From: an uncultured Pseudomonadota bacterium
Lineage (GTDB): Bacteria > UBA10199 > JADFYH01
Direction of reading: 5' to 3'
DNA length: 64,000 nucleotides
Assembly (NCBI GenBank): GCA_964384365.1
Contig: CAYLKF010000001.1
Location: 124,163 to 188,162 of the forward strand
A program made the translations under genes and the position numbers. Shown here in pieces: positions 936-59,682 of this stretch; position 1 is the first letter of the stretch, and each line of letters starts with the position of its first letter. Below the pieces are notes generated by a model, which did no database searches, was not told the origin of the DNA, and saw nothing but the letters and a program-made list of their open reading frames with translations.

Positions 936-968
936 ACAATAAACTCGTCTGGGATTTATTAAATAGAG

Positions 969-1102
969 TAATGGGTCAGCCTTTTTGATTAAGCGGAAAA
1001 GCGACGAATCCATCGATTGTAAAAATAGCACCTTTTCGAAACTACTTTAAAACATTTCCTTGCGGCGCGTTTTTACGCAAAAGAAAAAATGCTGACCCAT
1101 TA
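969..1102 (+). repeat. 134-bp intergenic element with 12-bp terminal inverted repeats (copy A of a family of 3 or more)
   Basis: Starts TAATGGGTCAGC and ends GCTGACCCATTA, which are perfect reverse complements. The internal core ...CATTTCCTT(G/A)CGG(C/T)GCGTTTTT(A/T)CGC...AAAAAATGC is shared with the elements at 22041 and 31815. It lies 20 nt upstream of the AKR start. Confidence 0.6.
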
Positions 1103-1122
1103 CAAATACGATAGGTAAATTT

Positions 1123-5518: not shown

Positions 5519-5592
5519 ATGTCATTCCCCGGTTTAACCGGGGAATCTAAATATGCCCAATAAGATCCTCCGATCAAGCCGGAGGATGACAG
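5519..5592. repeat. Double-hairpin REP-like element (copy 1), likely a bidirectional terminator between maf and the SDR gene
   Basis: ATTCCCCGG-tttaa-CCGGGGAAT and ATCCTCCG-atcaagc-CGGAGGAT are two perfect inverted repeats. A near-identical element lies in inverted orientation at 59607–59682. Confidence 0.55.
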
Positions 5593-9757: not shown

Positions 9758-11245
9758 TTGAAACAAATGAAATGGAACAAAACTAAAATTTACTTTGTGC
9801 TTTTTGGGCTTGTTGGCCTACTGATTTTCTCCGAATACCATAATAAAGGCGTAAGTAGCGTTCCCCCTCCTCCCCGTCATTCAAATCAGACGCTTTTCAT
9901 TGCCTTAGACGGAGTTCCCTACTCAATGATGGAAAAGCTTCATAAAGAAGGAGGCCTTTCCTCGTTTAACTCCCCCACTCGATTAATTGCGACTTTTCCT
10001 TCAACCACTACCACGGGATTCACAGGCTTATTTAAATCGATTGGTGCCCAAAAATCGCCAGGTTACGATGCCAAATTTTTCTCTTATCTTCAAAACCACG
10101 TGAAAGGAAACTTACTTGAAGCTTACGATTATGAGGCAGCCGATTATAACCGTTTCTTTTTTTACAATAGGAATACGGGCCTCCAACAAGTTGTCATGTA
10201 TACGGCCCCTTCATTTGCCCTAAAAAGTGATCTCAAAGAAATACAACCCTATCTTTGGGAACATCCCGAACAAGAAGCTTTATTCTTTTATGTGGGTGCA
10301 ACCGATGGCACGGGGCATCTTGATGGGCCAGAAGATACCGAGAATTTAGTCCGCTATACTTTAAAAGAAATCGCGGCACTCCGAGAAAACTATCGTCAAG
10401 CCTTTGATCAAGATCTTCAAATCGTTTTGTTCTCTGATCATGGTTTTTATTGGGACAAACTCAAAAAAATCGATATTTCAGAGGTTGAAGAGCGTTTAAG
10501 CAACATGGGGCTCAAGCTCTCCGAAGATTTAAAATATGACAATCATGTGGTGGCAATCACTTGGGGAAATATTAGCGGCGGCGATTTTTACACTTTTGAA
10601 AAACAGATTCCGCAGGTTGCCTCGATGTTGATCGATATCGAAGGGGTTGATCTTGTTAATTACAAAATTGGCGACAAGATTTTTGTAAGTGCTAACCGAA
10701 ATGGAATCTTTACTTTAGCAGAAGTAGTTTACAGCCCCGATGGCAAAAATTTTTCTTACCGCGCTTTAGCAGGTGACCCTCTAGGCTATCTACCGCTTCA
10801 AGAAGAATTAAAAAAAGAAGGAAAGCTCAACCAAGAAGGATTTGCTTCTGAAAAAGATTGGTTTGCCAAAAGTAATGCCCACCAGTATCCCGATGCGCTT
10901 TATCGATTGTGGGATGCCTACTATGGATTAGTGCAAAATCCTGCAACCCTCTTAATTTCTACTCATGAAAATTATGAATTTGGAGATGAGCTCACCCGCT
11001 TTGGTGCTTCTTTACGCGGTGGCATGCACGGAACTCATGGAGCGCTTGCTATTCATTCATCGAGTTCTTTTTTAGCAACCACCAATTCTTCCGTTTCGCT
11101 TCCACCAGTGCTTCGCTACGACCAAGCCTTGGTTCCTTTTGAAAAACCCATTCTCAATACTTTACGCCGGAATGAAGAAGAACATAAATATCGGCAAATT
11201 GCCCTACCCACCGACTTTCCTACCCCTGCCGACGGCGGGTATTGA
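9758..11245 (+). CDS. Membrane-anchored alkaline-phosphatase-superfamily protein (phosphodiesterase / nucleotide pyrophosphatase-like)
   Basis: N-terminal TM segment. ALDGVPYS...FPSTTTTGFTGL resembles the metal-ligand and catalytic-Thr region of type I phosphodiesterase/NPP enzymes. Confidence 0.5.
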   Translation: MKQMKWNKTKIYFVLFGLVGLLIFSEYHNKGVSSVPPPPRHSNQTLFIALDGVPYSMMEKLHKEGGLSSFNSPTRLIATFPSTTTTGFTGLFKSIGAQKSPGYDAKFFSYLQNHVKGNLLEAYDYEAADYNRFFFYNRNTGLQQVVMYTAPSFALKSDLKEIQPYLWEHPEQEALFFYVGATDGTGHLDGPEDTENLVRYTLKEIAALRENYRQAFDQDLQIVLFSDHGFYWDKLKKIDISEVEERLSNMGLKLSEDLKYDNHVVAITWGNISGGDFYTFEKQIPQVASMLIDIEGVDLVNYKIGDKIFVSANRNGIFTLAEVVYSPDGKNFSYRALAGDPLGYLPLQEELKKEGKLNQEGFASEKDWFAKSNAHQYPDALYRLWDAYYGLVQNPATLLISTHENYEFGDELTRFGASLRGGMHGTHGALAIHSSSSFLATTNSSVSLPPVLRYDQALVPFEKPILNTLRRNEEEHKYRQIALPTDFPTPADGGY

Positions 11246-11353: not shown

Positions 11354-12726
<1,373 letters not shown>

Positions 12727-14316: not shown

Positions 14317-14367
14317 ATAATTGATTCCCTTTTTGAATCCCCTCCTCTTAAGTTTAAAAGGAAGGTG

Positions 14368-14426
14368 GGAGGAGTTGTGTAACTTTTCACAACTCCTCCT
14401 AGCCCCCTCTTCATCTGAAGAGGGGG
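14368..14426 (-). terminator. Tandem stem-loops downstream of the aminotransferase gene (candidate intrinsic terminator)
   Basis: GGAGGAGTTGTG-taactttt-CACAACTCCTCC and CCCCCTCTT-catctg-AAGAGGGGG are perfect inverted repeats. A T-rich stretch follows on the minus strand. Confidence 0.5.
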
Positions 14427-15576: not shown

Positions 15577-15607
15577 TTTTTCTCCTTATTTCTGTAATAA
15601 TTTTCTT

Positions 15608-15648
15608 AATCTCAATCGCAACGCATTCAACTTAATAAATCCTTCTGC
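15608..15648. repeat. 41-bp direct repeat duplicating the last 14 codons of argG in its 3' flank
   Basis: AATCTCAATCGCAACGCATTCAACTTAATAAATCCTTCTGC occurs at 15608–15648 and at 15751–15791. The second copy is inside argG. A GC-rich hairpin-forming ~100-bp spacer lies between them. Confidence 0.6.
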
Positions 15649-15725: not shown

Positions 15726-16928
15726 CTAGTTCTTTTGTAAAAGTTTGCGCAATCTCAATCGCAACGCATTCAACTTAATAAATCCTTCTGCATCTGCTTG
15801 GTTATAAACGGTGTCTTTTTCGAAGGTGGCAAAGGCTTCTGAAAAAAGAGAATGGGGAGATTTACGTCCTACCACCATACAATTCCCTTTATAAAGTTTA
15901 AGCCTTGCGGTGCCTGAAACTTTTTGTTGCGCATCATCGATCAAATTTTGCAGAAGCTCCCGTTCCGGCGCATACCAAAATCCGTTATAAACGAGTGTGG
16001 CATATTGGGGGATTAAACTATCGCGAATTTTCAAAACTTCTCGATCGAGGGTTAACGATTCGATCGCTCGGTGCGCCGCATGAAGCACTGTGCAGCCTGG
16101 AGTTTCATACACACCGCGACTTTTCATCCCGACAAAACGATTTTCCACCATATCGACTCTGCCAATTCCGTTGGCTCCAGCAATTTCGTTGAGTTTTTCA
16201 ATTAAAGCCGCCGGGCTTAATTTTTTTCCATCAAGGGCAACCGGATTTCCTTTTTCATATTCCACTTCAATATAAGTAGGCTTATCAGGTGCTTTTTCAG
16301 GAGAAACCGAAAGAACAAACATGCTTTCGGGGGGTTCTGCCCAAGGATCTTCTAAAATTCCCCCTTCAAAACTGATATGCATTAAATTTCGATCAGAGCT
16401 GTAAGGCTTCTCTTTGGTAACCGGCACCGGAATCCCATGTTTTTCAGCATAAGCAATCAAATCGGAGCGCGATTTAAATTCCCATTCGCGCCAAGGCGCA
16501 ATAATTTTCACATCGGGCTTCATTGCAAAGGCGGTTAATTCAAAACGAACCTGATCATTACCTTTACCCGTGGCACCATGAGCAATCGCATCGGCCTTTT
16601 CTTTGGCCAAGACTTCCATTTGTTTTTTGGCAATTAAAGGGCGCGCAATGGATGTGCCTAAAAGATAAATCCCCTCGTAAATCGCATTGGCACGCAACAT
16701 CGGAAAAATAAAATCGCGGGCAAATTCTTCTTTTAAATCTTCAACGTAACACTTGCTCGCTCCTGTTTTGAGCGCCTTCTCTTTCACCGGAGCCACTTCT
16801 TCGCCTTGGCCAAGATCGGCCACAAAGGCAATCACTTCACATTGATATTTTTCTTTGAGCCATTGAATAATAACGGAGGTATCGAGTCCGCCCGAGTAAG
16901 CAAGCACTACTTTTTGAATTGGAGGCAT
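15726..16928 (-). CDS. argG: Argininosuccinate synthase
   Basis: [11 protein letters not shown]-loop motif and a full-length 400-aa ArgG architecture. Confidence 0.9.
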
Positions 16929-19658: not shown

Positions 19659-20665
19659 TGAATAAGTCTAAAATTTGTTTTTTTGAAGTTGAAGAATGGG
19701 AAAAAGAAAGCTTGAAAAAAGCTTTACCAAGAGAGTCTCTACTCCTTTGCCCAGATCCGCTCGAAGAGGGCACAGTTCAAGATTTTTTAAGTTGTGAAAT
19801 TCTCTCGAGCTTCGTTTTTTCTCCTCTCAATAAAAAGATTCTCAAACAGATGCCTCAGCTACGCATGATTGCTACTCGTTCGACGGGTTTTGATCACATC
19901 GATCTCGATTACTGTAAACAGCATCGAATTCACGTTGCGAATGTTCCCGTTTATGGAGAGCGCACCGTTGCCGAACACGCCTTTGCCCTAATCTTGGCTT
20001 TAAGCAAAAATCTGGTTTCTTCTATAGAGCACACACGCCAAGGCAATTTTTCTCTCCAGGGTCTTCGTGGAGAAGACTTGCAAAATAAAACTTTGGGGGT
20101 GATCGGAGTTGGAAACATTGGAAAACAAATCATTCAAATTGCCCAAGCCTTTCAAATGAAAATTCTCTGTCATGATCTTGTGCAAGACAAAACACTCGAA
20201 ACCCAATACTCTTGCCAATTTGTAGAACTAAATGAAGTGCTCAAAAATTCTGATATTCTCACACTCCATGTACCCGCTCACTCCAGCACTTATCATCTTA
20301 TTAATCGCTCACATCTCCCCCTCTTCAAGAAGGGCATGATTCTCATCAATACTTCGCGCGGGTCTGTGATTGAAACTCAATGTTTGCTAGAGGGCCTAAA
20401 TCAAAATATTTTTAAAGGACTCGGCCTAGATGTTTTAGAACACGAAGCGCTTTTTCGAAACAAAAATGAGCGCGACCTTCCTCTGAACTCAGAAGAACTA
20501 AGCATTTGGAACGCAAACAAGCTCTTGTTGAATGATCCTCGAGTCTTGATTACTCCCCACAACGCTTTTAATACTCACCAAGCGCTCGAAAGAATTTTAC
20601 AAACCACCTTAGAAAACATAAAAGCTTTTCAAAAAGGAACACTCTTAAATTCAGTGATTGAATGA
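19658..20665 (+). CDS. D-isomer-specific 2-hydroxyacid dehydrogenase
   Basis: GVIGVGNIGKQ NAD-binding motif and catalytic R/E/H region. Its ATG overlaps the upstream stop (TAATG). Confidence 0.8.
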   Translation: MNKSKICFFEVEEWEKESLKKALPRESLLLCPDPLEEGTVQDFLSCEILSSFVFSPLNKKILKQMPQLRMIATRSTGFDHIDLDYCKQHRIHVANVPVYGERTVAEHAFALILALSKNLVSSIEHTRQGNFSLQGLRGEDLQNKTLGVIGVGNIGKQIIQIAQAFQMKILCHDLVQDKTLETQYSCQFVELNEVLKNSDILTLHVPAHSSTYHLINRSHLPLFKKGMILINTSRGSVIETQCLLEGLNQNIFKGLGLDVLEHEALFRNKNERDLPLNSEELSIWNANKLLLNDPRVLITPHNAFNTHQALERILQTTLENIKAFQKGTLLNSVIE

Positions 20666-22041
20666 ATAACAACACCACAATTCACATTGGAGAATCCGGC
20701 TGGCGTGCCATCATTTCAGATGGGTTTACCTGGCCTAAACTTGCTGCGATTGGGCTTGCGCTGGCGCGCTCTCGAACTCCTCAAAAAATAGTGATCGGAT
20801 ACGATAATCGCTTTCTCTCGCCCCTATTCGCCTCGAATCTTGCCGAGATTTTCGAAAATGAAAATTGGAAAGTCGATCTTGTGCGAGAAGTTTTTCCCAC
20901 ACCGGGAATTGCGAAATTAGTGCGAGAAAAAAAATACACTTACGGGCTTGTGATCACAGCCAGTCATAATCCTTACTACTATAACGGGCTTAAAATTTTT
21001 ACCTCCCCGGGCATTTTAACTTCGAAGGCTTTCAATGCCCAGATTTCTGAACAAGCCCAGGGTTTGCTCAAGCAAGATCTGCCCGCATTCAAACCAGAGC
21101 TCCCGAAAAAAACAAAGTTTGATTGGCAGAGAGAATATCTCAAACATCTTTTAGACCATATCGACACTTCGATTATTCGGCGTTCCAAACTTAGAGTCGC
21201 CTGGGATTGCTTTGGAGGAAGCACCTCCAAAATTTCTCCGGCTTTCTTCAAAAAACTTCAGCTCAAAAATTTTGCGGTTCCTTTTACTGAAAATCCGAAT
21301 TTTCAACATCGACGCCTCGAACCAGATTCCGAATCTACTCAAACACTCCGAAAACTTGTGCAAAAAGAAAAAGCGCATGTGGGCTTAGCCACAGATCTCG
21401 ATGGAGATCGTTTTGCCATTCTCGACGAAAAAGGAAATTTTGTTCTACCCAATCTCATAGGCCCTCTGTTCATCAATCACCTTTTAGGCACTCGCCAAGA
21501 AAAAGGCACCCTCTACCAAACGGTGAGCTGCTCAAATTTAAGCCGTCAAATTGCGGAACAATACGGAGCAAAACTCATCGAAGTGCCAGTAGGATTTCAA
21601 AAAATGGGTACGGCGATGGCCGAAGATCCTCAAGCCCTGCTTGGTTTTGAAGAAACGGGCGGAGTGGCCTATGCCCCTTATTTGTTTTTCAAAGATGGTT
21701 TAATGGCCCATGCCTTTATTTTAGAAATTTTGGCCACTCAGAAAAAACCTCTTTCTCAACTGATTCGAGAATTGCTCAAACGTTTTGGCCCTATTTTTTA
21801 TAAACGCCTCGATTTAAAAACTTCTCACGCTGATCAATGGAATGATCCTGAACTCTGGGAAAAGCTCTCCGGAGAAAAAATAACTCAGATTTCAGAACTC
21901 GATGGAAAAAAATTCTATCTTCAATCGGGCTGGGTGTTGGTGCGCCAATCGAAAACTGAAAATTTAATCCGTCTTTATTTTGAATTCAGCCAAGAAAAAA
22001 TGATCAAAAAAATATTCAATCAAGTGAAAAAAATAATATAA
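20662..22041 (+). CDS. Phosphoglucomutase/phosphomannomutase-family enzyme (possible phosphopentomutase role)
   Basis: The TASHNP active-site phosphoserine motif and a DGDRF metal-binding loop are present. Its ATGA overlaps the upstream gene. Confidence 0.8.
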   Translation: MNNNTTIHIGESGWRAIISDGFTWPKLAAIGLALARSRTPQKIVIGYDNRFLSPLFASNLAEIFENENWKVDLVREVFPTPGIAKLVREKKYTYGLVITASHNPYYYNGLKIFTSPGILTSKAFNAQISEQAQGLLKQDLPAFKPELPKKTKFDWQREYLKHLLDHIDTSIIRRSKLRVAWDCFGGSTSKISPAFFKKLQLKNFAVPFTENPNFQHRRLEPDSESTQTLRKLVQKEKAHVGLATDLDGDRFAILDEKGNFVLPNLIGPLFINHLLGTRQEKGTLYQTVSCSNLSRQIAEQYGAKLIEVPVGFQKMGTAMAEDPQALLGFEETGGVAYAPYLFFKDGLMAHAFILEILATQKKPLSQLIRELLKRFGPIFYKRLDLKTSHADQWNDPELWEKLSGEKITQISELDGKKFYLQSGWVLVRQSKTENLIRLYFEFSQEKMIKKIFNQVKKII

Positions 22042-22169
22042 AGGGCAGCGTTTCTGAAATGAGAGAAAAAGTACCGAATTCTCGAAGATTGAATTTAAAG
22101 AATTCTCTATTTTTCTAAAAACATTTCCTTACGGTGCGTTTTTTCGTGAATGAAAGAAATGCTGCCCTT
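22041..22169 (+). repeat. Copy B of the ~134-bp TIR element, with compensatory changes in its terminal stem
   Basis: Termini AAGGGCAGC ... GCTGCCCTT are again perfect reverse complements. The core CATTTCCTTACGGTGCGTTTTTTCG is conserved. It lies 21 nt upstream of the phosphorylase ATG. Confidence 0.55.
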
Positions 22170-22190
22170 TACAAAATAATTTTTTAAGTC

Positions 22191-23681
22191 ATGCCCACAC
22201 TAAAACTAAAAAAAATTGGGATCGATACCTATAAAGAAAATGTCGTCTACATGCCTCGCTATTGTGAGATTTGTCGCAGCCAAGGTTTTCAAGCTCTCTC
22301 TAAAATTAAAGTGCACTGGAAAAATAAAAGCTTACTAGCCACCCTCAACATGACCGAAAATGGGCTTCTAGGCTCCGGAGAAATCGGGTTATCTCATATT
22401 GCTTTTGAGAGGCTTGGAGCTCCCGAAGGAGCTGAAATCTCGATTTCTCATCCTAATCCTTTGCAATCGACCGATTATATCCGTGAAAAATTAGACGGGA
22501 AAATTTTTAATAAAGCTGAACTCCGAGAAATCATCCACGATATTCTTTCTTTCCGCTACTCAAACATCGAGCTCACTGCCTTTGTAACGGCCTGCACCAT
22601 GGAACGCTTAACCGAAGCTGAAATCCTTTCTTTAACAGAAGCTATGGTAGAGACTGGAGAAACAATCGATTGGGAACAACCCTTGGTACTCGACAAACAT
22701 TGCATCGGTGGAATTCCCGGAAACCGCACCACGATGATTGTCGTCCCCATTATAGCCGCTCATGGCCTCCCCATTCCAAAAACTTCTTCGCGGGCCATCA
22801 CCTCTCCTGCCGGCACAGCCGATACAATGGAATCACTCTGTAATGTTTCGCTCAGCTTAAACGAAATGAAAGAGATGGTCGCTCGTGAACACGCTTGCAT
22901 CGCTTGGGGTGGGGCTCTTGCCTTGGCGCCAGTCGACGATATTCTCATTTCGGTGGAGCGCGCGCTCAATATCGATTCTGAGGGTCAGATGGTGGCCTCG
23001 ATTCTTTCAAAGAAAAAAGCAGCAGGCTCTACACACGTACTCCTCGATATTCCGATAGGCCCTACAGCCAAGGTAAAATCGCTCCATTATGCAAGGCGCC
23101 TCAAATTACTCTTCGAAAAAATAGGCAGAAAAATTGGGCTCAAGATCAAAGTTGTTTTCACTCAAGGCATAGAGCCCATCGGAAACGGCATTGGGCCAAG
23201 CTTAGAGGCAGAAGACGTGTTGAAAGTTTTGAATTTAGATCCAAGTGCCCCGGAAGATTTGCAAAAAAAATCTCTCTTGCTCGCTGGAGAACTTTTTGAG
23301 CTCTCCGGAAAAGTGAAAAAAGGGAAAGGCTTGCCACTGGCCAAAGATTTGCTTTTTTCTCGCGAAGCTCTACACAAATTCAACGCCATCTTGAAAAGTC
23401 AGGGAAATACAAAAACACTTACACGCGCAGCTCATACCCATGATTTTCCAAGCCCTCAAACAGGAAAAGTCACTCGCATTCACAATCTCAAGATCGCTAA
23501 AGTGGCAAAACTGGCAGGCGCTCCTCAAGATCATCGTGCGGGCGTTTTGCTTCATCACAAAACAGGAAGCCTGATAAAAAAAGGGGAAGCTCTCTTCACT
23601 ATTTACGCCGAAACTTCAGAAGAACTACACTTTGCCAGCCAATACGCCTATGAAAACCCCGATCTCTACCTCATCCGCTAA
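22191..23681 (+). CDS. Thymidine/AMP phosphorylase-like protein (archaeal-type 'putative thymidine phosphorylase', glycosyltransferase family 3)
   Basis: About 500 aa. The HCIGGIPGNRTT...SSRAITSPAGTADTME motif matches the pyrimidine-nucleoside phosphorylase phosphate/nucleoside-binding region. The N-terminal extension is typical of AMP-phosphorylase homologues. Confidence 0.7.
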   Translation: MPTLKLKKIGIDTYKENVVYMPRYCEICRSQGFQALSKIKVHWKNKSLLATLNMTENGLLGSGEIGLSHIAFERLGAPEGAEISISHPNPLQSTDYIREKLDGKIFNKAELREIIHDILSFRYSNIELTAFVTACTMERLTEAEILSLTEAMVETGETIDWEQPLVLDKHCIGGIPGNRTTMIVVPIIAAHGLPIPKTSSRAITSPAGTADTMESLCNVSLSLNEMKEMVAREHACIAWGGALALAPVDDILISVERALNIDSEGQMVASILSKKKAAGSTHVLLDIPIGPTAKVKSLHYARRLKLLFEKIGRKIGLKIKVVFTQGIEPIGNGIGPSLEAEDVLKVLNLDPSAPEDLQKKSLLLAGELFELSGKVKKGKGLPLAKDLLFSREALHKFNAILKSQGNTKTLTRAAHTHDFPSPQTGKVTRIHNLKIAKVAKLAGAPQDHRAGVLLHHKTGSLIKKGEALFTIYAETSEELHFASQYAYENPDLYLIR

Positions 23682-25747: not shown

Positions 25748-25857
25748 AGAAGTTTATTGAAATTACTCCCCCTTTGTAAAAGGGGGATACAGGGGGATTT
25801 TATAATAAAAAGTTCCTTAATAATAAAGGTACCTTTCTATGAAAAAATCCCTCCTAA

Positions 25858-25878
25858 CCTCCCTTTTTCAAAGGGAGG
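25858..25878 (-). terminator. Stem-loop immediately downstream of leuS
   Basis: CCTCCCTTT-ttc-AAAGGGAGG is a perfect inverted repeat lying 10 nt past the leuS stop. A second hairpin, CCCCCTTT-gt-AAAGGGGG, lies at 25768–25786. Confidence 0.5.
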
Positions 25879-31318: not shown

Positions 31319-31768
31319 TTATTTGGGTGGGCTTTTATTCTCCACGCGAATCCACAAATCTTCTCCCTCCCTCTCAACTGGAAAAACTCGAGCTTTGAGC
31401 GCCCTTCCCACATGGCCGCATTTTCCAATTTTTACACAACGGCCATCTCGAATATCGAAACGCCAATTATGGGAATTACACATCACCACATAGGGAGAAA
31501 TTAATTTACTTTTAGAAAGCGGGTAATCGGCATGCGGACAAGCGTCTTTAATCGCATAAAATTCATCGCCCGTTCGAAAAAGGGCAATCGTAAAACGATC
31601 AAGAAAAAAAGTACGAGCACGGCCAGGCTCAAGCTCTGAAACCTTGCCACCATAAATACGGCCGTTGAGGATCGGCGCCCGTTTGGCCTTGGGAATATAA
31701 TCCACGCCAAAAGCTCCATGGCCAAGTAAAATGTCTTCTTGCGGATCTTTTTTTTTCTTTTCTACCAT
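31319..31768 (-). CDS. Rieske [2Fe-2S] domain protein (NirD-like)
   Basis: CPHADYPLS and CNSHNWRF (CxH...CxxH) cluster ligands. Confidence 0.75.
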   Translation of the reverse strand: MVEKKKKDPQEDILLGHGAFGVDYIPKAKRAPILNGRIYGGKVSELEPGRARTFFLDRFTIALFRTGDEFYAIKDACPHADYPLSKSKLISPYVVMCNSHNWRFDIRDGRCVKIGKCGHVGRALKARVFPVEREGEDLWIRVENKSPPK

Positions 31769-31814
31769 ACTTGACTCTCGAAACCAGACGATTTATGGGG
31801 TCTAAAAGGATACG

Positions 31815-31948
31815 TAATGGGTCAGCGTTTTTGATTGAGCGAAAAAGCACCGAATCTATCGATTATAAAAGTAATATCTTTTCGAAATTACTTCAAAAAT
31901 TTTCCTTACGGTGCGTTTTTTCGCGAAAGAAAAAATGCTGACCCATTA
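31815..31948 (+). repeat. Copy C of the 134-bp TIR element; it contains the spurious upstream ATG of the bolA ORF
   Basis: TAATGGGTCAGC ... GCTGACCCATTA termini are identical to copy A. The core is about 85% identical to copies A and B. Confidence 0.6.
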
Positions 31949-31961
31949 TGCGAATAATAAC

Positions 31962-32213
31962 ATGCCAGTAAACCCAAGTGAAATTCAACAATTGATTGAA
32001 AAGGCCCTACCCGGTGCCCAAGTGAAAATCGAAGATTTAGTGGGCGATGGCGATCATTTGCAAGCCACCGTCGTTGCCTCTCAATTTGAAGGGAAAACCC
32101 TTTTACAGCAGCACCAGCTGGTTTATGCCGCTTTACGCGAAACCTTAAAAGAACGATTACATGCTTTAGCTTTAAAAACTTACAGTCCATCGGACTCCGC
32201 GCGCCAGACATAA
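31962..32213 (+). CDS. bolA: BolA-family protein
   Basis: The VKIEDLVGDGDHLQATVVASQFEGKTLLQQHQLVY motif fits BolA. The start is moved to the ATG after the repeat element. Confidence 0.75.
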   Translation: MPVNPSEIQQLIEKALPGAQVKIEDLVGDGDHLQATVVASQFEGKTLLQQHQLVYAALRETLKERLHALALKTYSPSDSARQT

Positions 32214-37205: not shown

Positions 37206-38231
37206 TCATGAGCGGAACTCTGCATAGCAAGCCCGAGAAGCTGTGGCAAGATGGGTTTTTAGAAGGGTTAAGAAACACAGGAGCAAGAGAGCAGCTACCC
37301 CATTATGGGCAACGGCTACGGGCAGAGGGAGACCAAAAAAGACATTTGAAAAACCCAAAAAAACCTGCACAGAAACTAAAATCACCAAGGCCCCAGCCAA
37401 AACCCGAAATGTTTTCTCGCGAAAGGCTAAATAAAGTCCTAAAGAAAAAGAATAGAAAAATACAATCATCGCTCCCAAACGGTGCATCCAATGTAAGGTC
37501 ACGCGAGCAGGATTATGAAGCACACCCCATTCATAATTTTTTCCAAACTCGTGCCAAACACCGTAAGCCGATTTGAAATCGAGGGGCGGAATCCAGTGTC
37601 CTTGGCATTGCGGAAAGTCCGGACAAGCTAAAGCCGCATAATTGGCACTCACCCACCCTCCTAAAGTAATTTGGATAATCAAGAGTACAAGACCCACTTT
37701 GATGAGAATAATAGAGAGGGAAAAATTACAAGAGCCTAACTCAGGAGAAGATAGACTTGTAGTCAGTAAAACTTCGCGGGTTTGCAAAAAATGCCAGGCC
37801 AATAAACTTAAGGTTGTAAATCCCCCTAGTAAATGCGCCATCACCACAAAAGGATGAAGCTTTAGGGTAACTGTCCATTTACCCAGTAGCCCTTGAAAAA
37901 TAACCCAGAGCACTAAAAACCAAGGCAGTAAAAATCGCTTTCCTTTGGTATTTCGAAAACGAAGCGAGCAAAACGCAATGAGCAAAACTAAAATACCCAA
38001 AAAACTCGCTGCATAGCGGTGGAGCATCTCTTTCCAGGCTTTATGCATTTCAATATTGGCAACAGCAGAAGATAAATCAATTTGTGAAACCACTAACTTG
38101 CCGTAACACCCCGGCCAATCCGGACACCCTAAACCCGCATTCGATAAACGAACGTACGCTCCTAAGAGGATTAAGCACCAGGTAAAACAGGTCGTAAATA
38201 AAACAAGGTGGGAGTAGTTTTTGATTTTCAA
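37206..38231 (-). CDS. ctaA: Heme A synthase (COX15/CtaA)
   Basis: Cys pairs in the first loop (GLGCPDWPGCYG) and conserved His-containing helices. 341 aa. Confidence 0.85.
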   Translation of the reverse strand: MKIKNYSHLVLFTTCFTWCLILLGAYVRLSNAGLGCPDWPGCYGKLVVSQIDLSSAVANIEMHKAWKEMLHRYAASFLGILVLLIAFCSLRFRNTKGKRFLLPWFLVLWVIFQGLLGKWTVTLKLHPFVVMAHLLGGFTTLSLLAWHFLQTREVLLTTSLSSPELGSCNFSLSIILIKVGLVLLIIQITLGGWVSANYAALACPDFPQCQGHWIPPLDFKSAYGVWHEFGKNYEWGVLHNPARVTLHWMHRLGAMIVFFYSFSLGLYLAFREKTFRVLAGALVILVSVQVFLGFSNVFFGLPLPVAVAHNGVAALLLLCFLTLLKTHLATASRACYAEFRS

Positions 38232-38302
38232 GGTTCAAGGTTTAAGGTTTGAGGCTTAAAGACAAAGGATTCCCCTTACACCTTAAAACTCATACCTTAT
38301 TC
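38232..38302. repeat. Heptamer inverted arrays (AAGGTTN x4 then CCTTANN x4) between coxIV and the ctaA start
   Basis: aaggttcaaggtttaaggtttgaggctt ... ccttacaccttaaaactcataccttatt. Confidence 0.5.
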
Positions 38303-55616: not shown

Positions 55617-55776
55617 ATTATCTCCTTCACTTTTCAAACGAGGCTTTTAGATTTCTGAAGCGAACACAAACAAGCCGAACATCAATAAGTAAACTCTTCC
55701 GGCCTTTCAATAATAGCTACCAAACATTTTCCTTACGGCGGATTTTGTGGGCGCTGAAGAAATACTAAAAGCCTTG

Positions 55777-56904
55777 TTATCTTCTCCCCCCACCATGAAA
55801 CCCTCCGAAACCTCCGCCGCCAAACCCTCCACGCCCTCCTCCTCCAAAACCACCAAAACCACCCCCTCCACGGCTATCGAACCCCCGCATACTATCTCTC
55901 ATTCCATCATCGCCGCCTCTGGCATCGAAGGCCGAGCGATCCCCACCAAAATTGGAACGATCTCCCCCACCTCGCAGATCATTCCCCCCATCTCCACGAT
56001 CTATCCCCTGATTTTTTTGATTTAAATTTTTCATCTGATTTTCAAAATTATTCAGATTGGCTTTTTGTGCGTCAGCAGCACTTCCTTTTGAAAAAGCAGA
56101 ATCTGCTTTAGACGAAGCCCCTAAAGAATCTCGCGATGTATCATGACTCCAGGCATTATCGGGGTGATTATTCTTCCAATTATTCGCATCATTTTTGGCA
56201 TCTTGAGTCGCATTCGGATGATTATTTTCCCAGTTCTTCACATTATTCGCATTCCAATTATTCCAATTATAATTATTTACGACCACGCCACCGTACCCAC
56301 CCCAGCCCCAAGCGAATCCCATCGTCATCCAAGCGCCCATCGCAAAACCAAGCCCATAAGTGACTGCAGGTGCAGGAGCAGTATAGATTACGGTTGGATC
56401 ATAAGTTGGCACATAAATCACTTGAGGATTGGTCGAGGTAATTTGAATGGCAGAATCGCTTTGGGTCACCGTTTGTTGGGCGTTTGAATTAAGATTGCCT
56501 TGTTTTTTAGCCTGCTGACGCAAGGTTTGAACCGCTTGCAAAACATCGCCCTGTTGATTCATCACGGCTTGCCCGAGTTGTTGAGTCCAATCGAGTTTAT
56601 CGTTCATCATTTTCAAGACAGAAGGATAATGCGCAACCGCTTTCACGCTGGGATCCCAACTCTGAGAATCAATCTTCGAAATATCTTTATCTTTTTTCAC
56701 CACGCGCGCAGCCTGCACAATCTCTAAAGGATAAGTCGAAGCCGGAAGAATCTGAGCCAGCAAAGGATCGGGGTAAAGCGCAATCGGCGCAACGAGCTTT
56801 TGAAGTTGACTGGAAGAAAGTTTAGAGTTGGAGCTTGAATTTTGAGCGAAACCGGGAGGTATGAGTAGTAAAGAGATGAGTAAAAACGTGAGTTTCTTGA
56901 GCAT
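55777..56904 (-). CDS. DUF3300-family secreted protein with a Gly-rich C-terminus
   Basis: LVAPIALYPDPLLAQILPASTYPLEIV is the conserved DUF3300 N-terminal motif. It ends in GGFGGFGGGGRGG repeats. Confidence 0.6.
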   Translation of the reverse strand: MLKKLTFLLISLLLIPPGFAQNSSSNSKLSSSQLQKLVAPIALYPDPLLAQILPASTYPLEIVQAARVVKKDKDISKIDSQSWDPSVKAVAHYPSVLKMMNDKLDWTQQLGQAVMNQQGDVLQAVQTLRQQAKKQGNLNSNAQQTVTQSDSAIQITSTNPQVIYVPTYDPTVIYTAPAPAVTYGLGFAMGAWMTMGFAWGWGGYGGVVVNNYNWNNWNANNVKNWENNHPNATQDAKNDANNWKNNHPDNAWSHDTSRDSLGASSKADSAFSKGSAADAQKANLNNFENQMKNLNQKNQGIDRGDGGNDLRGGGDRSNFGGDRSAFDARGGDDGMRDSMRGFDSRGGGGFGGFGGGGRGGFGGGGFGGFHGGGRR

Positions 56905-56957: not shown

Positions 56958-57773
56958 CTACAAGGTTTTCGATTCGTCTTTCTTAACCCAACCTCGCCTT
57001 CCATCCGAAAGCACGATCTTCACATAATCTCCCTGAGATTCCTCTAAGGTAAAAAGACTTCCTTCATGAAGCTCAAAGAGTTTAATCGATTGATCGGTGG
57101 GTTCCGAAAAAACAGAAGCCGTTGAAACAATCACCACAGCCGTTTTTTGGAAATATTGGGTATAAACTTGAATGAGGGCAGTAGGAAAGAAAACAAGATT
57201 GATTCCAAACAAAAGAACAAGAGCCAAATTCACCACGAATTTTTTCTTGAATAAGCGGAAAATTAAAAGTCCAAAAAAGAGGGTATAAAAGAAAAGCGAA
57301 ACAATCAAAAGCTCTGAGAGCGTGAGAAGATCTACCCAGAAAAAAAGCGTATGATAAATTTTAGAAGAGAGAGGGTGAATTTCTTGATCGGCCCTTTTAC
57401 TTTTTACATAACGACTATTCGCTAACAAATCGCGATCTCTCGGATTCAGCTTCAAAGCCTTTTGGTAATAATAAACTGCCATTCCGACTTGGCCCATCCG
57501 GTAATACGTATTTCCCAAATTATAATAGAGATCGGCCGAAGGCTGTGTTTCAAGCTCCGAATAGAGTTGGATCGCCTTCGGAAAATCCTGGTTATAATAA
57601 GCCTGCGAAGCTTCTTTCATCAGCTCTTCCGAGCTTGCCGCAAAACTCACCATCGAATAGGAGAGCAAGAAAATCACCGCTATTATTTTAAGAAAAATAG
57701 TAACTGGTCTGCGAGTTCTGAAAGGAGCGAAAAGTATGGAAGAATTCTCAGACCCGTTATGAAAATTTTTCAT
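56958..57773 (-). CDS. BatE/BatC-like TPR–TM–SH3 protein
   Basis: TPR repeats (YYNLGNTYYRMGQ...YYQKALKLNP), a TM helix and a C-terminal SH3b-like segment. Confidence 0.55.
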   Translation of the reverse strand: MKNFHNGSENSSILFAPFRTRRPVTIFLKIIAVIFLLSYSMVSFAASSEELMKEASQAYYNQDFPKAIQLYSELETQPSADLYYNLGNTYYRMGQVGMAVYYYQKALKLNPRDRDLLANSRYVKSKRADQEIHPLSSKIYHTLFFWVDLLTLSELLIVSLFFYTLFFGLLIFRLFKKKFVVNLALVLLFGINLVFFPTALIQVYTQYFQKTAVVIVSTASVFSEPTDQSIKLFELHEGSLFTLEESQGDYVKIVLSDGRRGWVKKDESKTL

Positions 57774-59606: not shown

Positions 59607-59682
59607 TGTCATCCCACGACTTGATCGGGGGATCCAGTACAAAGAATATTTAGATTCCCCGGTTAAACCGTGGAATGACATT
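59607..59682. repeat. Double-hairpin REP-like element (copy 2, inverted relative to copy 1 at 5519)
   Basis: Its reverse complement is ATGTCATTCCACGGTTTAACCGGGGAATCTAAATAT...GATCCCCCGATCAAGTCGTGGGATGACAG. This is over 85% identical to 5519–5592. Confidence 0.55.

Follow-up and report, generated by a model that had tools for sequence, protein, structure and literature searches.

REPINs are doublets of REP sequences that form hairpins and are moved by tyrosine transposases known as RAYTs (Bertels and Rainey 2011, PMC3116915). They are non-coding, extragenic, high-copy units of about 100 nt that fold as a single long hairpin in single-stranded DNA (ssDNA) or RNA. Changes on one side of this hairpin are commonly compensated on the other, and selection has been argued to act on the replicating element and not on a function for the cell (PMC3116915). 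Compensatory changes have also been described in the bcr1 repeats (PMC3184786). Here, we describe a hairpin-repeat family in 64,000 nt of DNA from an uncultured Pseudomonadota bacterium with a G+C content of about 43% (assembly GCA_964384365.1, contig CAYLKF010000001.1, positions 124,163 to 188,162 of the forward strand; this whole stretch is referred to as the window). The family is previously undescribed and belongs to a known type of element, the bacterial hairpin repeats. As in REPINs, the whole unit is a long hairpin with compensatory changes. However, the ends of REPINs (16-mers that overlap the REPs) are invariant and their spacer covaries, whereas here it is the terminal helix that covaries and an asymmetric motif in the interior that is essentially invariant. 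The family also differs from REPINs in having no REP-like GC-rich palindrome and in showing a probable target duplication, and no RAYT is seen in the 64 kb. Given its variable ends and conserved interior motif, the family is therefore not a REPIN by the defining arrangement.

Using nhmmer, we identified five insertion loci in the 64 kb and one orthologue of these in a related genome, L090, and the full-length members are 135–151 nt long. The copies, and the parts of copy B that are central to the analysis of pairing, are as follows.

968..1103, plus strand: copy A, GTAATGGG...CCCATTAC, 136 nt, intergenic.
22038..22172, plus strand: copy B, whole element, ATAAAGGG...CCCTTTAC, 135 nt; nhmmer E = 5e-34; RNA fold -43.6 kcal/mol, z = -6.0.
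22039..22055, plus strand: left arm of the terminal helix of copy B, TAAAGGGCAGCGTTTCT; 17/17 positions paired with 22155–22171, one of them G.T.
22155..22171, plus strand: right arm of the terminal helix of copy B, AGAAATGCTGCCCTTTA.
22125..22134, plus strand: asymmetric core motif of copy B, TTCCTTACGG, identical in B, C, D, and E90.
31814..31949, plus strand: copy C, GTAATGGG...CCCATTAT, 136 nt; fold z = -8.1.
55635..55780, plus strand: copy D, a divergent member; fold z = -6.6; E = 6e-23 with a five-copy nhmmer profile.
57700..57760, plus strand: copy Ew, an internally deleted remnant from which about 90 nt are gone; both arms are present, GTAACTGGTCTGCGAGTTCT...AGAATTCTCAGACCCGTTAT.
L090 7879–8029: copy E90, the full-length orthologue of Ew; nhmmer E = 2e-11.

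Every copy folds as one long imperfect hairpin, which can form on either strand and is similar with DNA and RNA parameters; the z-scores of the RNA folds range from about -4.5 to -8.1 across the copies. From the outside inward, the hairpin consists of the ends RTAA...TTAY, a terminal helix of 17–21 bp, a symmetric purine loop with GA opposite GA (GAA opposite GAA in copy B), a 2-bp helix, a second GA/GA loop, a GCG-A5/T5-CGC helix, a 2-nt bulge, and a 6-bp helix ending in CCG/CGG, beyond which lies an apical region of about 57 nt. The inverted arms span roughly 32–44 nt including the terminal helix. The motif TTCCTTACGG is the most conserved part of the family, with a single change in copy A (TTCCTTGCGG); it borders the apical region on one side, and its CGG closes the innermost long-range helix together with an equally conserved CCG in the left arm (ACG in A). 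Within the apical region, copy B is unlike A and C except for the stretch adjoining the right arm. A first-pass annotation of the window had stated that B keeps an internal core, and indeed the 25-nt core CATTTCCTTACGGTGCGTTTTTTCG is found three times at no more than 3 mismatches, where 0 matches are expected. Copy D, which is 60–66% identical to the other copies, was first seen as a weak match at about 55650–55765 by a repeat finder and nhmmer and proved to have the same architecture once folded. A comparison of reading frames between copies found none conserved, and the elements are short and non-coding; a six-frame concatenated query for spurious small open reading frames (ORFs) over the other copies gave no match. 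We also considered whether the core, read as its reverse complement (TAAGGAAATG), contains a conserved small ORF or a Shine–Dalgarno sequence, and dropped the idea because the ATG is not conserved.

The ends of copies A and C are TAATGGGTCAGC...GCTGACCCATTA, and those of B are TAAAGGGCAGC...GCTGCCCTTTA (quoted in the first-pass annotation as AAGGGCAGC...GCTGCCCTT). That annotation had named these three copies, all of which are real, on the plus strand, and intergenic, and had proposed that both halves of the terminal stem of B have been altered jointly and are still complementary. This is what we find. Compared with A and C, the terminal helix of B shows a change from T:A to A:T, a paired 1-bp deletion, and a change from T:A to C:G, each on both arms, and nowhere in this helix is a change confined to one arm. 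The last of these had been overlooked (left arm, GTTTTTG to GTTTCTG; right arm, AAAAAAT to AAAGAAAT), and the helix of B is longer than had been described, comprising 17 bp, 16 of them Watson–Crick and one G.T. A fourth paired change separates B from C in the 2-bp helix further inward (TT/AA to AT/AT). By our own calculation, the B versus C pattern would arise under independent evolution of the arms with a probability of about 1/816 × 1/9, or roughly 1e-4. Rather than being non-complementary in most copies, the contrary outcome that the annotation had set beforehand, the ends are complementary in 6/6.

The same holds when all copies are compared. Paired with itself, the terminal helix of the six copies has 17/18, 18/18, 17/17, 17/19, 17/19, and 20/22 positions paired, as against 12–16 of 18–24 positions when a left arm is combined with the right arm of another subfamily. 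Over the six copies, 94.6% of cells are paired versus 84.1 ± 2.1% in shuffles (0/500 shuffles as high), 7 of the 25 helix columns have changed on both sides versus 3.7 in shuffles (4/500 reach the count), and the covariation score is 0.256 versus 0.095 (0/500 reach the score). When partners were slid by 1–3 columns as a control, 41–55% of cells were paired and 0–1 covarying pairs were seen. One helix column contains T:A, A:T, and C:G and another G:C, C:G, and T:A, and five positions with an insertion or deletion in one arm have a counterpart in the other. The paired indels are T/A, TTTT/AAAA, and three more inserted pairs. In copy D, for instance, AACGAGGCTTTTAGATTTCT pairs with AGAAAT-A-CTAAAAGCCTTGTT; both of these arms differ from those of the other copies, with TTTT opposite AAAA. 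Several Watson–Crick pairs at single columns together with the matched indels indicate that what has been kept is the complementarity of the arms and not their primary sequence. Some helix positions are nonetheless invariant across the family, namely TAA, GG, C, and the T:A pairs at the inner end. The inner helices behave in the same way (A:T versus G:C and G:C versus T:A) and were not counted, as the alignment of copy D is ambiguous there. Since the alignment of the terminal helix was fitted to the helix, we additionally calculated alignment-free duplex energies, in which the best partner of each arm is the other arm of its own copy, with A and C interchangeable: the duplex of B has -28.2 kcal/mol with its own arms and -14 to -18 kcal/mol with other arms, and that of D has -20.0 versus -4 to -7.5 kcal/mol.

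To place the copies in their genomic context, we compared their loci with those of relatives. Two of these, L090 (about 89–95% protein identity) and L091, were reached at 89% and 77% identity through a search with the DUF2950 protein and are closer than the other relatives compared. The genes next to the copies and the flanking repeat of copy B are listed here.

1123: ATG of an aldo-keto reductase gene, 19 nt downstream of copy A.
20662..22041: phosphoglucomutase-family gene upstream of copy B.
22030..22037, plus strand: flanking direct repeat AAAATAAT, left copy, a candidate 8-bp target-site duplication of copy B.
22173..22180, plus strand: flanking direct repeat AAAATAAT, right copy, matching the left copy at 8/8 positions.
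22191..23681: thymidine-phosphorylase-family gene next to copy B.
31319..31768, minus strand: Rieske-type gene next to copy C.
31962..32213: bolA-like gene next to copy C.
55616, minus strand: ATG of the DUF2950 gene; copy D occupies the spacer between this gene and a DUF3300 gene.
56958..57773, minus strand: TPR gene, within the 5' end of which copy Ew is located in frame and without stops.

At the B site, the two genes are separated by 3 nt in L085 and overlap by 4 nt in L088, both of them relatives with 65–70% protein identity, compared with a distance of 149 nt in the window. Taking out copy B plus one flanking repeat puts a stop codon again 3 nt before the downstream ATG, which is the spacing in L085. 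An 8/8 flanking match has a chance frequency of 0.0006 across the window and 0.013 in AT-rich contexts. The D site has spacers of 42, 83, 37, and 43 nt in four relatives, the 89% relative included, and no element is present in any of them. The E site carries the element in the window and L090, whereas L091, L094, and L096 lack it and have the two genes abutting or overlapping. Because the orthologous sites are empty in relatives, copies B, D, and E are insertions. The copies contribute to the genes around them: the TAA at 22039–22041 inside copy B is the stop codon of the upstream phosphoglucomutase-family gene, and the TTA at 55777–55779 in copy D is that of the DUF3300 gene. Copy E lies after codon 5 of the TPR gene, and the n-region of the signal peptide is longer by about 20 residues in the window; in L090 the gain is about 50. 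In L090, the empty D site is a spacer of 42 nt (9959–10000) that includes a small hairpin, CGAAGTATTTCG; an 8-nt word of this spacer, AGTATTTC, also occurs in the reverse complement of the right arm of D. We considered the 42-nt spacer of L090 as a remnant of D and dropped the idea, as the two share this word alone and nhmmer gave no support.

Searches beyond the window and L090 were negative. About 120 kb from relatives with 57–77% protein identity (L084, L087, L088, and L091–L098) contained no copy by nhmmer and a fuzzy search for the core. Scans with the core pattern, in collections that do not include the source genome, returned 77 loci in genome contigs, 2 in metagenomes, and 3 in viral sequences, and no locus had more than one match; three of these loci that were inspected are chance matches, and nhmmer found no full copy in any. 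BLAST searches of plasmids and phages with the element gave no match. Rfam had no match in the whole window at gathering thresholds, and a relaxed search with C and B returned only miRNA-precursor (plant hairpin) models at 13–26 bits, compared with thresholds of 70–195. A promoter and terminator scan of 21500–22700 was empty, for intrinsic terminators as well; the helix that precedes the T-run encloses about 57 nt.

Several described families share features with this one. It shares with MITEs (miniature inverted-repeat transposable elements) short non-coding units with terminal inverted repeats (TIRs) and dispersed copies that are present or absent between relatives. The bcr1 repeats of the Bacillus cereus group are similar in size (about 155 bp), patchy distribution among relatives, flanking direct repeats, compensatory base-pair changes that preserve the predicted structure, and the loss of structural stability in some copies (PMC3184786). 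They differ in being cruciform-like with two stem-loops, in a 5-bp duplication, and in the phylum of their host, a comparison made by description only. Correia/nemis elements of Neisseria, ERIC of enterobacteria, and RUP of pneumococcus are likewise imperfect palindromes of 100–160 bp at gene boundaries with TA at both ends, which form long hairpins when transcribed and whose ends can supply stop codons or other signals. However, the sequence of these TA-duplicating MITEs is unrelated to ours, which has no Rfam, plasmid, or phage matches, and the flanking 8-bp repeat of B suggests another target duplication. The TIR sequences of Correia/nemis, ERIC, and RUP are well conserved, unlike those of the hairpin family described here. 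The TA ends also recall MITEs of the IS630 type. In Rickettsia palindromic elements, insertion occurs in frame into coding regions and adds residues to the protein. Copy E, in frame inside a coding region, without stops and with residues added to the protein, is similar to these by placement alone; only 1/5 loci is intragenic here, and no sequence relationship is expected. The IS66 family makes an 8-bp target duplication according to ISfinder descriptions. IS66 elements have terminal GTAA (PMC12888890), as do some ends of our family, a likeness that is limited to the first four bases, with no TnpA, TnpB, or TnpC at hand, and that we regard as a lead. GTAA stands at both ends of A; in C, B, and Ew, one end is GTAA and the other ATAA, whereas E90 has CTCA and ATAA and D has CAAA and ATAA.

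The copies show an asymmetry between strands. The terminal helix has 11 cells that are not Watson–Crick pairs, of which five are G.T and none is A.C; because G.T is present and A.C never is, the pairing of one particular strand seems to matter, and this seems to point to a single-stranded intermediate or a structure of one strand and not to recognition of TIRs in the duplex. All five loci have the same chromosomal orientation (plus), in which A, B, and C run with local transcription and D and E against it. Since D and E are located in minus-strand operons, their G.T pairs are on the strand that is not mRNA. Across the whole window the GC skew is negative, and the minus strand carries most of the genes, so the folding strand would be the lagging-strand sequence, a placement that would run opposite to the prediction of an IS608-like mechanism. 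IS200/IS605-like mechanisms are not known to make a target duplication. An IS608-like TTAC target was considered and ruled out, as the flanking tetranucleotide is not conserved. All five loci are also 10–19 nt from a start codon (intervals 1104–1122, 22173–22190, 31950–31961, 55617–55634, and 57761–57770); this proximity and the shared orientation may reflect the very short AT-rich gene junctions of the genome or may be a true target preference.

The explanation that we favour, to which we give about even credence, is that of a non-autonomous mobile hairpin element, MITE- or REPIN-like, whose propagating lineages have to keep their intrastrand pairing. Such an element would insert at gene boundaries into AT-rich DNA and would probably duplicate 8 bp of the target. 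Its lineages would then diverge, and only those variants whose arms still fold back would go on propagating, with the outcome that the terminal helix would covary, paired indels included, while the core motif would stay fixed. In this scheme, B would represent one lineage, with E nearest to it, A and C a second, and D a third. The sequences themselves show several copies, their hairpin and its covariation, empty orthologous sites, and decay once inserted; a mobilising enzyme, a single-stranded stage, and selection, rather than templated repair, as the keeper of the pairing are what we infer from these patterns. A filter on pairing most likely operates while the element propagates, in line with the proposal made for REPINs. 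Copies are absent from relatives, occur in either orientation to neighbouring genes, and in one case lack the interior, so that any selection acts more plausibly on propagation of the element than on an RNA function for the host.

Several observations weigh against this explanation or reduce its support. The covariation sample comprises six sequences (A, B, C, D, Ew, and E90) from about four lineages, a number at which R-scape-type statistics are powerless, and the terminal-helix alignment was made by hand, fitted to the structure, and checked against the sequences. The 8-bp duplication is unambiguous for B only: flanking matches are 8/8 for B, 6/8 for Ew, 5/8 for E90, 4/8 for A, 4/8 for C, and 3/8 for D, and for A, B, C, and Ew a 2-bp duplication of TA would suit just as well. 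Neither a transposase nor a RAYT is present among the window ORFs scanned (64 kb), and mobilisation itself would thus have to be presumed. The excess of G.T over A.C comes from only about 6 independent events, and the uniform orientation of the five loci has p = 0.06. Finally, the parts shared by the orthologues Ew and E90 are 79% identical, compared with 62–72% at third codon positions of neighbouring genes, and their 19-bp helix differs by 2 complementary double changes, 2 wobble changes, and 4 pair-breaking changes. At least two complementary doubles are expected by chance with p of about 0.06 by our own estimate, and these counts suggest that upkeep of the pairing after insertion is weak or absent.

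Among the other explanations, coincidence, with B as an unrelated palindrome or with changes that happen to match, is exceedingly improbable: we found nothing in its favour, the pattern of B versus C recurs in D and E, and the duplex-energy and shuffle controls refute it. A more serious rival is neutral concerted evolution, in which template switching or repair of an extruded hairpin would copy changes and indels from arm to arm with no selection on structure. It is documented that template switching restores the pairing of stems and that a single event can yield "compensatory" changes of several bases or of indel type (PMC8794818; also PMC13100816). Copying between arms would easily account for indels matched on both arms, TTTT/AAAA among them, and for the 1-bp deletion found on both arms of B. 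The near-neutral evolution of the orthologues Ew and E90 fits as well. For this reason, the claim of the first-pass annotation that the paired changes reflect selection on secondary structure stands as far as complementarity has been kept rather than primary sequence, while selection itself would have to be presumed, as template switching gives the same pattern. However, frequent copying between arms should erase mismatches and loops, and the GA/GA loops, the 2-nt bulge, and one column that is mismatched or G.T in A, B, and C persist at fixed positions; in particular, the GA/GA loops are retained in subfamilies that differ at seven helix columns, which argues against wholesale homogenisation of the arms. 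The outer loop has grown from 2 × 2 to 3 × 3 by one A per arm, a change that is symmetric and not complementary, and copying alone does not predict G.T without A.C in the helix, as transitions should give both equally unless one strand in particular must fold. Taken together, we consider neutral arm copying unlikely while still giving it real weight.

It is rather improbable, in our judgement, that the copies are structured RNAs of the host, such as mRNA-stabilising hairpins, RNase targets, terminators, or insulators, in which selection on the RNA keeps the helix. The strong RNA folds and the position of all copies at gene boundaries fit this explanation, the layout of A-run, stem, and T-run looks like a bidirectional terminator, and related repeat families (Correia/nemis and bcr1) are transcribed and influence expression (PMC3184786). 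Yet no Rfam family matches, the terminator scan was empty, copies are missing from orthologous sites of relatives, their orientation to transcription is mixed with the G.T pairs of D and E on the strand that is not mRNA, E is translated through, and Ew lacks the core and the inner helices. We give no greater credence to an ordinary MITE with several TIR subfamilies, each derived from and moved by a different related DDE transposase (IS66-like, with GTAA ends and an 8-bp duplication, or IS630-like, with a TA duplication), so that the two ends match by way of the same protein. Such a MITE would be consistent with the RTAA...TTAY ends, as the inverted repeats of the IS66 family begin with GTAA (PMC12888890), with the 8/8 flanking repeat of B, and with the invariant skeleton of helix positions. 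On the other hand, at least four terminal variants occur within 64 kb of a single genome and conservation is highest in the interior core, which is the opposite of the pattern predicted for TIRs bound by a transposase, and no transposase is present in the 64-kb window. Separate recognition of each end by a protein also does not predict three Watson–Crick pairs at one column or matched indels; as ends that are read separately create no mutual dependence, B fits poorly as a separate subfamily with independent TIRs, the alternative that the first-pass annotation had offered. More speculatively, the uniform orientation, the G.T pairs without A.C on the same strand, the freely covarying ends, and the conserved symmetric purine loops could suggest a new type of non-autonomous element that is moved or maintained as a strand-specific ssDNA hairpin and recognised by its shape together with TTCCTTACGG, not by terminal sequence. 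Its partner enzyme might belong neither to the classical DDE transposases nor to the RAYTs; we regard this proposal as doubtful.

Other repeats and hairpins were seen in the window. Two further long local hairpins (25770–25875 and 14341–14426), with arms of 43 and 42 nt that are about 76% complementary, are located in spacers between minus-strand genes, and their sequence is unrelated to the mobile-hairpin family. A second small repeat, TGTCATTCC[C/A]CGGTTTAACCGGGGAATCTAAATAT, which contains a 9-bp perfect palindrome, is found at 5520–5554 (plus strand) and 59646–59680 (minus strand), and both copies are followed, some 25 nt away, by GATCCNCCGATCAAG. The first lies between genes, behind a Maf-like gene, and the other forms the first codons of a BatD ORF, which has 635 aa in the window versus 619 aa in L090; this repeat may be another palindromic insert read in frame. 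Heptamer arrays (TATAAGG five times and CCTTAAA 4.4 times) are present in the spacer between genes for adenylosuccinate synthetase and phosphoglycerate dehydrogenase, and an inverted relative of them, AAGGTTYAAGGTTT, is found upstream of a cytochrome oxidase assembly gene (window 12647–12725 and 38227–38257). Lastly, a 59-nt direct repeat (15590–15648 and 15733–15791), whose copies are 90% identical and 143 nt apart, spans the 3' end of the gene for argininosuccinate synthase and the downstream spacer.

For the genome studied here, copies of the hairpin family account for oversized intergenic spacers and for the longer N-terminus of the TPR protein, a point of use in annotation: they occupy junctions within operons, supply stop codons, and in one case form a translated part of a signal peptide. 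Bacterial genomes are shaped by abundant hairpin repeats, and the covariation in this family is unusually clean, with as many as three Watson–Crick pairs at a single column, matched indels, and an invariant motif away from the centre. The full genome probably contains a few hundred copies, which would make it well suited as a natural data set for distinguishing selection on intrastrand pairing from repair by template switching and could help to find the mobilising enzyme.

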